From: a virus
DNA: 64,000 nt
Virus record (IMG/VR): IMGVR_UViG_3300036820_000006
Location: 1-64,000 of that record
Reading direction: 5' to 3' (one strand)
This document shows, piece after piece, positions 47,694-57,834 of the stretch. Both the position numbers and the translations under genes were made by a program. Under the pieces are notes generated by a model. That model was not told the DNA's origin. It ran no database searches and saw only the letters and a list, made by a program, of their open reading frames with translations. The stretch's first letter is position 1. Each line of letters begins with the position of its first letter.

Positions 47694-48053
47694 TCACCTT
47701 CTTTCCCGATGAGACTTTCTGGCGTTCAAGTGTTGCGCGCAGAAATCGCGACGGGATGCGAAGATGAACGAATCCGTCCTTGAAAGAGTTGTGACCCACC
47801 TCGGTCGGCAGTCCATGCGTGCGCACAACACCTTCATGCCGAGCCTGCCCGCTGCCAGCGTGAGCGCGTTCTTGATGCTCATGGGCGGAATGAAAACTTC
47901 CTTGGTCTGAGGATCATAATGCAAATGCTCACGCCATGTGCGCTTGCGATAAGCATCGTAAGATTCTTGGTCTTCCTTTTCGGTTTCGTGGTAACGAGAC
48001 TGCGAATAAGGTGATACTCCTTCAAGCTCGACGGTTGCGATGCGAACGGACAT
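47694..48053 (-). pseudogene. RAMP/Cas7-like protein, truncated after about 75 codons
   Basis: VELEGVSPYSQSR and VFIPPMSIKNAL match RAMP beta1 and helix motifs; no C-terminal Gly-rich loop; sequence after LGMKV (~47828) reads better in another frame. Confidence 0.6.
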
Positions 48054-48090
48054 TGAAATTCTCCCTTGGATTTGAGTTTGAGTTATGAAA

Positions 48091-48270
48091 ACGTTACGTT
48101 ACATTACATCAAGCAGCGCGAAGTTGAGACACGATGCAGCACGCAGCAGAACGTTACAGGACGCAACGTAGCGCTGCACTGTGATGCCCCATGACGCGTT
48201 GCGAAACGACGCCCAACAGCACAGAATGCTGCGACATGCGGCGTTACGTAGCGACACGGAACGTTACGCA
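48091..48270 (-). ncRNA. 5-nt-period CGY-NN array 1 (36 units), putative guide RNA
   Basis: On + strand 19/36 units start RCG and the other 17 differ at one position; register unbroken. Confidence 0.8.
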
Positions 48271-48284
48271 ATCTCTAGCAAGCT

Positions 48285-48791
48285 TTACTCTTGAATGGCC
48301 TTGGACCCGAAAAGTTTCAGTGTCTCATCCATCGGCAGTGGACGAGTACGATTGCCAACCGCATCAGCGATCACCTTCTGCGTGCGCTCAGTAGCGCCCT
48401 TCTGGATGAACTGCAGAATCGTCAGCGAGGTATTGTGTTGCAGCTTTGACTGTGCGCTGAGCGAGTCGTAATCGACTGCCTGCAACCGGCGCGATGCACG
48501 CTTGGCTGCCTTGCTGAGCTTGCGCAAGTCCGCAGTGCTTAGACTGGGAACTTCTTCATTGGGCACTAGCCGTACGCCTCGGCCCCAGTCCACCACAAAC
48601 ACCATGCCTTGTTCACTGAGCAGCTTATTAGTTGATGTGGTAAGGACGTTGCGTCGATGCCGCACATCACACCCACACAGGGCGTTCAGCTCGGTATACG
48701 TTACGGTCTCTCCCGGTTTGGCCTCGGCAAGCCGACGCAGAGCGATAGTAGTCTCAACCGCGAGATTACCCTTGATTGGAATATACGGCAT
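48285..48791 (-). CDS. winged-helix-like protein between arrays
   Basis: AAGGGAG RBS; PGETVTYTELNALCG...GRGVRL. Confidence 0.7.
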   Translation of the reverse strand: MPYIPIKGNLAVETTIALRRLAEAKPGETVTYTELNALCGCDVRHRRNVLTTSTNKLLSEQGMVFVVDWGRGVRLVPNEEVPSLSTADLRKLSKAAKRASRRLQAVDYDSLSAQSKLQHNTSLTILQFIQKGATERTQKVIADAVGNRTRPLPMDETLKLFGSKAIQE

Positions 48792-48821
48792 TCAGAATCT
48801 CCCTTTCTGATGATGCCAGTA

Positions 48822-48921
48822 ACAGTTCGGTACGGTACGTCACGTGACATGAAGGTGCGTTACGGGACATCACCTCACGGGACGGGACGATGCGGCGCGT
48901 AACAAAAAGATATGCAACATT
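48822..48921 (-). ncRNA. 5-nt-period CGY-NN array 2 (20 units)
   Basis: 10/20 RCG, rest one mismatch; begins just downstream of a - strand promoter. Confidence 0.75.
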
Positions 48922-48934
48922 CACGCCATCTACC

Positions 48935-48991: not shown

Positions 48992-51900
48992 CTAAAATTT
49001 GACCTCCTGCAGCTCCGCCATGTTCGGCCCGCAGGCACATTCAATGCCCACTACCAGACCCTCTGGAGCGAGCTGTGGATGCACCAGCACATTACTCGGC
49101 CTACCGAACACGTCGCTGATATCATGCAACATCTGCGCACGCAAGCCTACTGGATAACAGAGCAGAATGCTGTCGTGAATCGTGTTGCACAGGCCGTAGC
49201 GCTCAGCCAACCCTTCACGATCTAGCGCTTTCAACCGCTCACGCAGGTCGCCGTGCGCCTCGCTCTGCACTCTGAATGCCATGGCGGCGTTGAACTGCTC
49301 GCCAGGTTTCCAGCTGCCTTTACCATCGGGCACGTAGACCTCGTAAAACCATCGCAACATTCCGTAGCGGTTCTTTAGCATGCCCTGCCGGTGCGCCTCT
49401 TCGCACACGTTGCGCTGCCATACGAACACCTTTGGGAACAGACGCTCAATAACAGTGCGGAACTCTCTAGCCTGCTTCAATGAGGCGAAATGTTCACGGT
49501 TCATTTCGTAAAGATGTGGCGGCATCAACCCCAACGCAATGCCAAGAATACTCGGCTTGGCCTGCCGGTCACGCACGGCTTTATAACGCTCATTGGACCT
49601 GAACCAGCGAAAGCGATCCATCAGCTCGTCGTCAGGTAGCGCGAACAGCTTATCCGCATCCGGCAGGCGCAGAAAGTTCCACGCCACAAAGCTGTGCATG
49701 TCCAGCCGTGCCATACGGCAGTTATGTGACAAGAATCCCTCCGCGATAAATGTTTTAGTACTCGTACCTAGTGCCACGACAGGATGATTTCCTATAGACT
49801 CAATTTTCAAAATCTTGGCGTCATGCGCAAGTTTTCCAAACACGTTCATGCCTTCTAGCCTAGACAAGCACTTAGGTAATAATCGCTTTGGTCTAAATTG
49901 CCCCAGCGCACGTATACCCGCGAATGGCTGCCCCACAAACCTAAATGTACGGCAATCTCGTTGGGGATTGTTAGCACTGTCCCCAAGGCTATAACCATAT
50001 TTAGCTAACATACTTGCTACCGAGTCCGCGATAATCCCAGGTCTCTGTGCGAAACTTAGCTGGCACCCATTACTAAGGGACCCCTCCCCATCCAAAATTC
50101 CGGCAATATATCCTTGATCCCATAGATCAGCACTCTTCCATGGCGGGGTAAACGTGCTCAAGTACATACCCGTAGCTAATTCATCAGCCCTGCGCCAGCT
50201 TACTCGTTGCTTAGTATCAAACTTAGCTAGCCATGTGTGTTCTATGCTGCATGTAACAACGCCTTGGTCAGTGGTAATGCGCACACACGGACGTTCAATA
50301 TAATCCACGGACTCAATTACGGATTTACGTAGCTTGCGTTTGCCCTCTATCGGAAACTCATCGAATCCCCAAAGTACCTCTCCCTCTCGCAGGTCTATGG
50401 CACGTCTCCATTGCAGGTCGGCCGTCAGAATACGAGTATCTGGGGCCACACAATAAGACTCATCTTCAGCTAAGAACCCTGTAATAAGGACATGATAACT
50501 TTTCAAATCCCAGTTCGCCAGCTCATACCCCGCTGGCGCTTCGATCATACTTTTTATAGCCTTACCCAACTTACCGTGGGCAGGGTAAGTTTGCGTAGAT
50601 GGATTGCGCGCACTTAGCTGTCCAGTCGCGGGCGCGAAGGTAAAAGTGGTGTGTACTCGGCCGTCGGCGTGCGGTTTGAACCCGTCAACATAAGTGCTCG
50701 ACATCTTTCCCATCTCACGGCATTCAATCACCTTCGTATAAAAGTCATCCTTGTGCCTAACTGCGAGACGTTCTAGCTCTTTTTTGTTGGTGGTGTCACT
50801 GCCTTTCTTGCGATCTTTGGGAATCTTATGCCCACGCACCCGCATATAATTCATCAGTTGCGGCGATGAGTTTGGTGAGAATTCATACACACGGCACCAG
50901 CGTGCAACCCCGGCAGTCTGTGTGCCAAGCTGCTCATCAAATACCTGCTGGCCAAACTGGCGCACATCAAAATAGAAGCGCTCACCCGGTTCCTCGACGC
51001 CATCTTCATCCGTGGTCGGCGGGTCCTCGAACATGCGCGCGCGGATCACCGCTATCTCGTCGGCAGTTACATTGCTATAACGATTAAGGTAAGCATTCTT
51101 GGCGGACTCGGTTAGCGCTTTCTTTGTCTGCTTGCCTTCCACCACCGGAATCCGAGTCGGCGTGATCTCTTCTAGCAGCTCTTTGACGCGAGGGGGCACT
51201 CCGGCATAACCATCCTTCGGCGTGATCTTTCTGGCGTCGGCGGGGAACCTGGCATCCAGCTCTAGCAGCAGCTCCGCACGCGTAGCATCAAACTGCGCGC
51301 CTAGCGCCAGCCTACGCTCATTATTAATCGGCAGGCCCCGCTGCTCCATTTTGGCTAGAATTGGCCGCACTGCTTCGACTTGGTTCTCATAGCCGACAGC
51401 GGCGCGCGCAGGCTGCGGGTCATACCATATCCCGCGATCTACCATAGTGCGGTACGAGACTGAATGAATACGCTGTGTCGCGTCCACGTCTACGCAGCCG
51501 TAGAACTCCAGATTGGTGCCGTTCAAATGCTTCCAGGGGAACGGGAACTGCGCATAGCTAGCAGCGAACTGCAGATGCGCGGGCAAATCCGGCTGCATAA
51601 AGTGGAACTGTTGTAAGGTATCGTGTACCGGCCCGGCAAGTTCGAGATAGGTGGCATTGCCGAAATCGCGCTGGCCGACCGCGCGCAGAACTTTCAAATC
51701 GAATAAATTGTAATTATGCCCCAGCTTCGGCAGCGGCAGTTTCAGCAGCCATCTTGTCGCTTGAATAAAAGGCTGCTTCCACGGCATCGCAATAGCTTGG
51801 CCTGGCGCGACGCTGAACTGACTTAGCCTAATCTGCGTATCGGTGAATCCATCCGTTGCGTCTTCATCTAGCGATGCCGATTCAAAAGTTTCGATATCGT

Positions 51901-52693
51901 GTGCCAGCGCGGTTAGTACGTGCTCAGCGGTACCGGGAATGCTGGCCAGCCACGCATCTGAACGCGCTTTTACATCGCGGCAGAAATCGTCCAACTGAAT
52001 AAGTGTTGGATGCAAGGTGTAATTTAGGTGGTTCTGTTGCAGCCACGCTGCTACTGCTTCAGCATCGTTATCCTGCAGCATGTCCAGAATAAAACTTTTA
52101 TCTTTACCGTAACGCACGTTGACCGCGCGTTGAATATCTCGCGCCAGCACGCCGGTGAGATGAATCGCGCCTCGGCGCAGGAAACTAGGATGATATGTAG
52201 GCACCACCAGAAGTTCGCAGCCTGCTGCTTCGCAGAACTCTGGCAGCGCGCGAAACACATAACCGCGCATATGGCTAATAGTGCGCTTTTCGCCCGAGAT
52301 GCCCGTCAAAGTGCGGAACGGAATGCCGCCAAGCGCCACTACAGTGCGCGGCTTGAACTTGCGAAAGAATTCCAATAGATTAGGCTGGCACTGATTGATG
52401 ACGGAGAACTCATAGTTAGTTCCAGCTAGCGCGTTCCCAAATGGTCTGCAGCGCAACGTATTCGAGATTGCGAACTGGTCGCGGGAGAATCCCAGCCGAC
52501 GCAGCGTGCGCTCTAAGACAGCTCCAGCTGGTGCGTATTTGACAAAAGGAGTTAGTTCACGCGCCTCGTTTTCTCCGCTGGCCTCGCCAATGAGAGCAAC
52601 GCCTAAGCTGCAGCTTCCTTCTGGCTGGGAGAAGTCAGTGCCAGCATTGTATAGATAGCAATTTCTACAGCTATCTGGCTTACTCCTGACCAC
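48992..52693 (-). CDS. family A DNA polymerase with N-terminal family-4 UDG-like domain and intein
   Basis: UDG: IGEASGENE, NTLRCRP, TYHPS; exo: HDIET, GHN..FDL, YGCVD; pol: ATGQLSARNP, DLKSYH, AKPSILG, IHDS. Confidence 0.9.
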   Translation of the reverse strand: MVRSKPDSCRNCYLYNAGTDFSQPEGSCSLGVALIGEASGENEARELTPFVKYAPAGAVLERTLRRLGFSRDQFAISNTLRCRPFGNALAGTNYEFSVINQCQPNLLEFFRKFKPRTVVALGGIPFRTLTGISGEKRTISHMRGYVFRALPEFCEAAGCELLVVPTYHPSFLRRGAIHLTGVLARDIQRAVNVRYGKDKSFILDMLQDNDAEAVAAWLQQNHLNYTLHPTLIQLDDFCRDVKARSDAWLASIPGTAEHVLTALAHDIETFESASLDEDATDGFTDTQIRLSQFSVAPGQAIAMPWKQPFIQATRWLLKLPLPKLGHNYNLFDLKVLRAVGQRDFGNATYLELAGPVHDTLQQFHFMQPDLPAHLQFAASYAQFPFPWKHLNGTNLEFYGCVDVDATQRIHSVSYRTMVDRGIWYDPQPARAAVGYENQVEAVRPILAKMEQRGLPINNERRLALGAQFDATRAELLLELDARFPADARKITPKDGYAGVPPRVKELLEEITPTRIPVVEGKQTKKALTESAKNAYLNRYSNVTADEIAVIRARMFEDPPTTDEDGVEEPGERFYFDVRQFGQQVFDEQLGTQTAGVARWCRVYEFSPNSSPQLMNYMRVRGHKIPKDRKKGSDTTNKKELERLAVRHKDDFYTKVIECREMGKMSSTYVDGFKPHADGRVHTTFTFAPATGQLSARNPSTQTYPAHGKLGKAIKSMIEAPAGYELANWDLKSYHVLITGFLAEDESYCVAPDTRILTADLQWRRAIDLREGEVLWGFDEFPIEGKRKLRKSVIESVDYIERPCVRITTDQGVVTCSIEHTWLAKFDTKQRVSWRRADELATGMYLSTFTPPWKSADLWDQGYIAGILDGEGSLSNGCQLSFAQRPGIIADSVASMLAKYGYSLGDSANNPQRDCRTFRFVGQPFAGIRALGQFRPKRLLPKCLSRLEGMNVFGKLAHDAKILKIESIGNHPVVALGTSTKTFIAEGFLSHNCRMARLDMHSFVAWNFLRLPDADKLFALPDDELMDRFRWFRSNERYKAVRDRQAKPSILGIALGLMPPHLYEMNREHFASLKQAREFRTVIERLFPKVFVWQRNVCEEAHRQGMLKNRYGMLRWFYEVYVPDGKGSWKPGEQFNAAMAFRVQSEAHGDLRERLKALDREGLAERYGLCNTIHDSILLCYPVGLRAQMLHDISDVFGRPSNVLVHPQLAPEGLVVGIECACGPNMAELQEVKF
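49721..50452 (-). mobile_element. intein (244 aa) with LAGLIDADG motif
   Basis: CVAPDTRIL...FIAEGFLSHN|C; YIAGILDGEG; lower GC. Confidence 0.9.
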
Positions 52694-56639: not shown

Positions 56640-56756
56640 TGCAATCTCCCTATCCACTAATGAATTTTCTACGGAGTAGAACCAGAAGGGAAGCCTCACC
56701 CCGCGCAACACGCGTCCATTCATGTTGCCTGTGAGGCTTCCCCCAGTTGGCCCAGC

Positions 56757-56809
<53 letters not shown>

Positions 56810-57001
56810 ATTGTTCTGGCTGAGAAGGGGCACCCACTCAGCCAGATTTGGAGGGACGATACGCGGTTAGCCAAGCTGTGGGTAAGGGCGGCTCACAGCT
56901 TTTGCTCGTACTCGCGTTCGTCCCATGACGAGTAGAAGGTGTGTAGGGGGAGAGCACCGAGAACTTAGAAAATAACTAAGCGCTCTCCTCCAAGTTTGGA
57001 A

Positions 57002-57076
57002 CCGTTACGCTACGAAACTATGCGGGACTGTAAGATATGGGACAATGCGCCACGTCGAGTTACGCGGCGGCACGAT
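57002..57076 (-). ncRNA. 5-nt-period CGY-NN array 3 (15 units)
   Basis: 8/15 RCG, rest one mismatch; starts 2 nt after the SSB-like stop and is followed by a hairpin (56947-56991). Confidence 0.7.
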
Positions 57077-57078
57077 AG

Positions 57079-57834
57079 TTACTTCTTCGGAAAATATCCG
57101 ACGACGACAGCCTGCGCCCGCATCGCAACGTCACCGAGCTTGCCCGGCACTGTGATTTCCGGCACGCGCTTACCGTCACGTTCTGGAAACCGGTGCATCC
57201 CTTTCACGCGCTTCGGCAAACGCTCGCCGCGCTCTTTGTAAAGTTCCACAGTGTCCTGATCGGGCTGACCTTCCCATGAAGTTTCGATTTCGAGCGTGGG
57301 CTCGCTGGCCAGCGTCTTCTGGAACAATTCTTTCAACTGACCCGCACTCATATTGCTAGGCACCTTCACGCCGAGGCATTGCAGAATTCTGACCATCGCA
57401 ATTCCGCCATTTCTCGCCGTCCGGCTATCGACGAAGCGATCAAAAACCGGAATATTATCGAACTTCCCACTGGGGTCCTGAATGCGGCACTCCAGCGCCG
57501 TGCTCACATACAGCTTCGGCTTACCATTCGCCAGAAAAACAGGCTTTCCCGGCGCGCCCTTGCTGTAGTCCATGTCCTGCTTCACGGCGAACAGCACTTC
57601 CTTGCCGTCAGCATCCTTGACGTTCAACTGTTTTAGCTTGGCAGTGTAACGGCCATCCGGCACGGGCGGCGGGAACTCGTATGGGTTGGCGCTGGCATCG
57701 AACTCCAGCGATTCTTCCAGCAGCGAGGGATCGTTCAGGTCCACTGACACGATTTGTTGGTCATCGGCGGCGCTGTCAGTGGACACACTACCAGCGGTCT
57801 CGTCGGCGTAGATAGGTTGAGCGAAATCAGTCAT
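57079..57834 (-). CDS. putative single-stranded DNA-binding protein (DUF669-like)
   Basis: PPVPDGRYTAKL motif; next to AAA_24 ATPase. Confidence 0.55.
   Translation of the reverse strand: MTDFAQPIYADETAGSVSTDSAADDQQIVSVDLNDPSLLEESLEFDASANPYEFPPPVPDGRYTAKLKQLNVKDADGKEVLFAVKQDMDYSKGAPGKPVFLANGKPKLYVSTALECRIQDPSGKFDNIPVFDRFVDSRTARNGGIAMVRILQCLGVKVPSNMSAGQLKELFQKTLASEPTLEIETSWEGQPDQDTVELYKERGERLPKRVKGMHRFPERDGKRVPEITVPGKLGDVAMRAQAVVVGYFPKK

Follow-up and report, generated by a model that had tools for sequence, protein, structure and literature searches.

The window analyzed here is a stretch of 64,000 nucleotides belonging to a complete virus record of 99,275 bp with direct terminal repeats and a G+C content of 55.5%, which represents an uncultured phage. 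The only clue to its host is a set of megablast matches of 36-72 nt to Pseudomonas phages, and no sister phage was found with peptide patterns of a 251-aa protein against IMG/VR or with a Sak4-like protein by tblastn against cultured phages. Three places in the window, and five in the 99,275-bp genome, reached the threshold of our array scan (arrays A to E). The third of these, array C, is found in the following context:

57002-57076, minus strand: array C, guide region of a candidate solo vrRNA, 15 NN-CGY pentamers (75 bases) in phase
56949-57001, minus strand: 3′ flank of array C, candidate vrRNA tail or 3′ end, with the junction UUCCAAACUUGGAGG followed by a 10-bp hairpin (56949-56988)
57079-57834, minus strand: 251-aa gene directly upstream of array C, DUF669-like and possibly SSB-like

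The initial annotation had described a 15-unit array of the same grammar as its neighbors, beginning 2 nt after a stop codon and followed by a hairpin, and all of these elements were reproduced, as was the dinucleotide series. Each unit is RCG-NN on the plus strand and NN-CGY on the minus strand, where the surrounding genes lie. Read on the latter strand, the dinucleotides are, in order, at gc cg aa ga gg at cc at ac cc at tt ag aa, and all four bases are used at the NN positions. The triplet is exactly CGY in 8 of the 15 units, has G at position 2 followed by Y in 11, and has Y at position 3 in 14. Degenerate triplets occupy units 7-10 and 12 (TGT, CAT, CTT, AGT, and AGT), and the resulting exact-triplet conformity (0.53) sits at about the tenth percentile (0.54) of the arrays of related loci. 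The periodicity of array C is far beyond chance: its 15-unit CGY score is 38/45, whereas that strand reaches at most 29 elsewhere than in the arrays, and 100 first-order Markov simulations of the 64-kb window reach at most 33/45 on both strands.

These features recall VIPR, a CRISPR-like DNA silencer of phages first described in 2026 (bioRxiv 10.64898/2026.04.26.720920). The published guide, or vrRNA, consists of 9-16 GGY/NN pentamers in tandem, to which a filament of Vipr (a minimal RAMP protein resembling Cas7) binds, and the NN dinucleotides pair with double-stranded DNA (dsDNA) while every third target base is skipped, with no PAM and with either strand targetable (bioRxiv 10.64898/2026.04.26.720920 and.720927). 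Variant consensus types (NNNGG, YNNNG, and NNNNG) and staggered arrays are also mentioned (bioRxiv 10.64898/2026.04.26.720920,.720927, and 10.64898/2026.10.15.759431). A vrRNA is recognized by at least 4 (typically 9-16) units of a triplet plus a hypervariable NN in unbroken register, and this is the arrangement found in array C. Its consensus is CGY and not the published GGY, which fits the “related consensus/YNNNG” variants of the papers.

On the 3′ side of array C, the 10-bp hairpin at 56949-56988 (minus strand) has a predicted fold of −21.6 kcal/mol for 81 nt (z score, −2.2) and is not followed by a U-tract. Neither a sigma-70 promoter nor an intrinsic terminator was detected around array C, including between the 251-aa gene and the array. 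A junction of the form AA-CGN/UUYCA is common to arrays A, C, and E, and a short UCCA-N(1-7)-GGAG motif occurs after arrays A, C, D, and E (window positions 48054-48090 and 56989-57001; genome positions 68520-68535 and 84505-84530). The GGAG that follows arrays A and D is also the ribosome-binding site of the next ORF, and the one that follows arrays C and E opens a hairpin. A pseudoknot tail similar to that of SUSP1 is not evident after array C, where only the short shared junction and the hairpin were seen. Since arrays A and E as well as those of relatives end alike, the 3′-most unit of array C (aa) is probably a conserved handle rather than part of the guide. Farther downstream, between the array C hairpin and the next gene, a hexamer repeat, (CAGCGA) x 4.8, lies at 56750-56815 of the window inside a long inverted repeat (CTAAGCAGCGA...TCGCTGCTTAG).

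Array C starts 2 nt past the stop codon (57079-57081) of the ORF at 57079-57834 on the minus strand, and it probably rides on the transcript of this 251-aa gene. The gene product had been called SSB-like. This remains a lead only for a protein that has no Pfam or PHROG match, is placed near DUF669 phage proteins in a protein atlas (score of 0.92, likewise a lead only), and is encoded next to a Sak4-like gene.

The truncated vipr gene, vap, and the other arrays

The four remaining arrays and the two genes associated with them are distributed as follows, the coordinates of arrays D and E being those of the genome:

47694-48053, minus strand: truncated vipr, 119-aa ORF, codons 1-75 homologous to a Vipr family of about 190 aa, remaining 44 unrelated
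48089-48283, minus strand: array A, between vap and vipr, about 36 NN-CGY units
48285-48791, minus strand: vap candidate, 168 aa, intact ORF
48815-48924, minus strand: array B, upstream of vap, about 20 NN-CGY units
68530-68649, minus strand: array D, in the rest of the genome, same CGY pentamer grammar
84378-84517, plus strand: array E, in the rest of the genome, same CGY pentamer grammar

According to profile comparison and structure prediction, the family of the 119-aa ORF is the Cas7-like Vipr family. Its profile matches PDB chain 36pp_D, “SUSP1 Vipr protein,” with an E value of 1.6e-5 over the C-terminal half only, and an AlphaFold (AF2) model of one homologue (pLDDT of 87.8) retrieves Cas7 (RAMP) subunits of type VII and type III systems in Foldseek (E value of 4e-8). 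Homologues of the ORF are 187-195 aa long. In the phage, homology ends at residue 75 (position 47826), with profile positions 2-76 of 189 aligned to 47826-48053, and the N-terminal part is 72-77% identical to its homologues, without a stop codon. The thumb, the glycine-rich G-loop, and the C-terminal GLGRFRP..GRF motif are all missing, and it is this region of the family that gives the match to the solved SUSP1 Vipr. We considered a frameshift as the cause of the short ORF and rejected it, as the C-terminal part is absent in any frame. Neither the missing part nor a second copy of vipr was found in the 99-kb genome by tblastn in any frame or by a profile search of six-frame ORFs. The 44-residue tail of the ORF is not shared by two other short forms found in the databases. 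Given this truncation and the lack of another copy, the five arrays, array C included, have no cognate protein in the phage, and the guide can work only with a Vipr from another element. The N-terminal part being still 72-77% identical and free of stop codons, the loss would be recent at most.

The 168-aa ORF has a weak match to phrog_5926. Because its homologues adjoin vipr in 23 related loci, where both gene orders occur, we identify it as the accessory gene vap. With a 100-kb record, G403, the phage has in common only vipr, vap, and a single weakly matching ORF. In the same region of the window, a 1,233-aa DNA polymerase-like ORF (48992-52693, minus strand) appears to contain an insertion, running from C-V-A-P-D-T-R-I-L-T to about S-H-N-C, that resembles an intein.

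In all five arrays, CGY is on the strand of the flanking genes, as it is in relatives. Together, the arrays total about 110 units over 36 kb, with a perfect 5-nt phase across 15-36 units. Of their units, 90-100% have Y at position 3 and 73-87% have G-Y, as seen in the arrays of relatives with an intact Vipr, and as a set the arrays do not look eroded. What appears to be new at this locus, as read from the sequence, is that vipr has been shortened to codons 1-75 of about 190, with vap and all five arrays still in place.

Arrays beside Vipr-family genes and the one-base-skip reading

Period-5 arrays lie on the same strand beside a Vipr-family gene in 50 of 55 IMG/VR loci. The triplet is GGC in some of these loci and CGC or CGT in others, and some arrays are 4-5 kb away from vipr. 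To examine the skip rule, all arrays were masked in 57 loci, and the arrays of relatives were decoded under skips of 0 to 3 nt. Seven 10-unit windows with a match of at least 19/20 were obtained under the 1-nt skip, compared to none under skips of 0, 2, or 3. In the clearest case, units 1-13 of a CGC array in one locus (L046:10558-10625, plus strand) match another (L040:10051-10090, plus strand) in wobble alignment, with all 13 units perfect. This guide spells the codons for F-R-P-R-N-N-G-Y-Y-G-R-F-E (FRPRNNGYYGRFE), the conserved 3′ end of vipr in L040, and L008, a third locus, matches 19/20 at this motif of the vipr 3′ end. From these sequences, we interpret the L046 array as a guide against the VIPR system of a rival phage, namely, L040 vipr. 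Guides against the vipr of rivals have been published for SUSP1 relatives (bioRxiv 10.64898/2026.10.15.759431).

This decoding within the clade indicates that CGY arrays are vrRNAs and that the 1-nt-skip reading is legitimate here, with the reservation that the skip rule and the filament model are established for GGY systems and that for this clade they rest on one clear guide-target pair. As an independent confirmation of the one-base-skip code within the clade, the pair appears to be a modest added point.

In another related locus (L048:10590-12300, plus strand), 15 or more short vrRNAs follow one another, each with about 10-12 CGT units. Each of them ends in a fixed handle, AG-AGC-AG-AGC-AGGUAUUU, which makes this locus far more punctuated than the long arrays of the phage studied here.

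Searches for a target of array C

The initial annotation had read array C as a second guide of the same grammar, in which two bases are read and the wobble base is skipped, and had proposed that it is directed against a Panacea (DUF4065/SocA) antitoxin gene. The guide reading and the skip rule held up, the latter through the verification within the clade described above, and the proposed target did not. A 12-unit regular expression derived from the array gave no exact match in viral, genome, or metagenome contig collections, and no match with up to 3 mismatches in 401 Gammaproteobacteria genomes, where the reversed control also gave none. Against ten real Panacea loci, the 12 units reached at best 15/24, below the mean of 15.8 for shuffled guides, and 498 of 500 shuffles were equal or better. 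With the full 15-unit guide, the best match in these loci was 19/30 (shuffled mean, 18.7; 272 of 500 shuffles equal or better).

The Panacea motif behind this proposal is itself roughly right, real N termini reading ..G..(I/V)(T/S)x(L/M)K(L/V)QKL, and it is the match of the array to this motif that does not hold. The decoded peptide does end in I-T-P-M, and 1 of the 10 sampled Panacea proteins has L-T-P-M-K-V-Q-K-L. However, array C shares only T-P-M with that N terminus, and the units that follow (tt ag aa) do not encode K-L-Q-K and thus depart where the domain is most conserved. Furthermore, the phage has no Panacea gene. With ten loci below the mean of shuffled guides and no match in three collections and 401 genomes, a guide aimed at the 5′ end of a Panacea antitoxin gene is very unlikely, and this is the outcome that the initial annotation had named as refuting its proposal. 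It had also been argued that the opposite orientation of this guide favors dsDNA over mRNA as the target. A dsDNA target is supported by the VIPR papers and not by array C, since the orientation argument is left without a second data point once the Panacea target fails.

The searches for any other target could detect only sites with 9-12 consecutive exact units or with no more than 3 mismatches, so that sites with scattered mismatches would escape. The criterion for a natural target in the VIPR papers is a match of at least 80% of the NN bases, and natural guides have no self-targets (bioRxiv 10.64898/2026.04.26.720920 and.720927). No target at this level was found for array C in any collection searched, the best match anywhere being 23/30. 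Exact 9-unit seeds (units 1-9, 2-10, 4-12, 5-13, and 7-15) were searched in IMG/VR. The 12 seed loci were in unrelated genes and were rejected as targets, their best full-length match of 23/30 being what an 18-base seed plus chance gives. Examples are a basic protein of 72 aa containing I-A-R-K-E-G-I-P-M, an ORF of 573 aa that runs off the end of its locus, and an out-of-frame site in a large fiber-like gene. These results imply that IMG/VR holds no site with at least 10 consecutive perfect units. The 10-unit seed 3-12 was absent from metagenome contigs, and five large related virus records had no match to array C with up to 3 mismatches.

The possibility that array C regulates the phage's own genes was discarded, as its best match in its own genome was 19/30, which is the chance level (157 of 200 shuffles equal or better). 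The same applies to alleles of the neighboring genes, for which no match above chance was present anywhere in the genome. The lack of a self-target above chance agrees with what the papers report for natural guides. Among 10-unit subwindows of array C, the best self-match was 14/20, not above that of any of 200 shuffled guides (mean, 15.1), and this low value may hint at avoidance of self-matches. The vipr and vap genes of relatives were likewise dismissed as targets of array C, with a best match of 20/30 among 57 VIPR loci, and 12-unit windows of arrays A, B, D, and E reached at most 19/24 in the vipr/vap loci of relatives. About a third to a half of the published vrRNAs have no identifiable target (bioRxiv VIPR papers), so a blank for array C is not unusual.

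Interpretation of array C and comparison with known systems

Based on its anatomy, its strand, and its kinship with the arrays that flank Vipr in 50 of 55 loci, we consider array C to be a stand-alone (solo) vrRNA gene of a CGY-type VIPR system, with a probability of about three in four. The array would be transcribed on the minus strand, probably as a 3′ extension of the mRNA of the 251-aa gene, and the RNA would be trimmed or end near the UUCCA..GGAG junction and the hairpin. By analogy with the SUSP1 and Pseudomonas fulva complexes, one Vipr protomer would bind each CGY triplet, leaving 13-15 free dinucleotides to pair with a dsDNA site of the form NNxNNx..., at which transcription would be silenced. 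A phage or prophage with VIPR in the same cell would supply the Vipr, as has been described for VIPR-null phages and satellites; failing this, the array would be a recent relic. Even if the solo vrRNA reading is right, there is roughly one chance in three that array C is now inert.

Array C might be a decaying, nonfunctional relic, one of several dispersed leftovers that have been drifting since Vipr was lost, and the truncation of vipr at codon 75 with no second copy, the failure of every search to find a target, and the degenerate middle triplets with their low exact-triplet conformity are all in line with such decay. Evidence against drift is the perfect 5-nt phase kept by 5 of 5 arrays over 15-36 units, in which 90-100% of units have Y as the third base, a level typical of relatives with an intact Vipr. 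In addition, vap is intact, the N terminus of vipr is 72-77% identical to its homologues and lacks a stop codon, so that the loss is recent at most, and VIPR-null phages are reported to keep working solo vrRNAs, which use a Vipr made by another element (bioRxiv 10.64898/2026.10.15.759431). We therefore regard the relic explanation as possible but doubtful.

A different view would be that array C is not a guide at all and that it serves as a periodic binding site in a 3′ untranslated region for another oligomeric RNA- or DNA-binding protein. TRAP binds triplets spaced 5 nt apart, and the 5-nt spacing of the conserved triplet, along with the lack of a target and of an intact Vipr, would suit a protein of this kind. 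Yet arrays of this grammar lie beside the Vipr gene in 50 of 55 loci, the free dinucleotides of an array in the clade spell a target gene under the skip rule, and no TRAP-like gene was noticed, which makes this explanation very unlikely. A TRAP-like site with a 5-nt period and DNA iterons were both dropped given the link to Vipr and the decoding within the clade.

Returning to the solo vrRNA reading, one could imagine that the phage discarded its own Vipr and keeps vap and five arrays to commandeer the Vipr filaments of VIPR-positive rivals, phages or prophages, that share its cell, and that the retained 75-residue N-terminal fragment caps or poisons these filaments. We offer this as speculation that is probably wrong. 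If it were true, the “guns for hire” idea, so far limited to SUSP1 relatives and satellites, would extend to a distant CGY clade, with the truncated protein as an extra weapon.

Taken alone, array C is one more orphan VIPR guide, and the antidefense target proposed for it is not real. The idea that it is a guide is right and already in print; the new points are the truncated vipr and the confirmation of the skip code within the clade. The value of the locus lies in the clean case that it offers of a clade distant from the characterized SUSP1 and P. fulva systems, with CGY units and with guides scattered in a 99-kb uncultured phage. If these guides are active, they must use the protein of another element, and what has been published on guide-only elements would have to be broadened. 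The pairing of the L046 guide with the 3′ end of L040 vipr lends independent support to the one-base-skip code outside type II systems.

The closest parallel is with the solo vrRNAs found on satellites and on phages that lost vipr, i.e., VIPR-null phages and F5 satellites (bioRxiv 10.64898/2026.10.15.759431). As in those elements, a guide array with a 5-nt triplet-plus-NN grammar lies in a phage genome apart from or without a working vipr, and the use of another element's Vipr is presumed. The published solo-vrRNA phages are relatives of SUSP1 from Enterobacteriaceae, with GGY units, a clean 1,114-bp vipr-vap1 deletion, and one or two solo guides, whereas this phage has CGY units, retains vap, has a vipr that breaks off after codon 75, and carries about 110 units in five arrays over 36 kb. 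Targets were identified for the published solo vrRNAs (vipr, satellites, and other vrRNAs), while none was found for this phage.

The locus also resembles the type II VIPR systems of Escherichia phage SUSP1 and of a P. fulva prophage (bioRxiv 10.64898/2026.04.26.720920 and.720927) in its RAMP-like Vipr, with a sequence match to the SUSP1 protein, in its small accessory gene of the DNA-binding type, in its vrRNAs on the gene strand (9-16 pentamers in those systems), and in the wobble-aligned skipping of one base. It differs from them in that the triplet begins with C instead of G, in line with the YNNNG alternative, that no pseudoknot tail is evident, that the arrays lie embedded among genes, some of them being long and without punctuation, and that the protein is only distantly related (E value of 1.6e-5, C-terminal half). 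In a broader context, the Cas7-like backbone fold (Foldseek E value of 4e-8), the assignment of one protomer to each RNA segment of fixed length, and the periodically unpaired guide bases are reminiscent of the crRNA-Cas7 filaments of class 1 CRISPR systems. Unlike these, the phage lacks repeat-spacer arrays, cas genes, and an adaptation module, and VIPR pairing involves two bases in every five of the guide and two in every three of the target.
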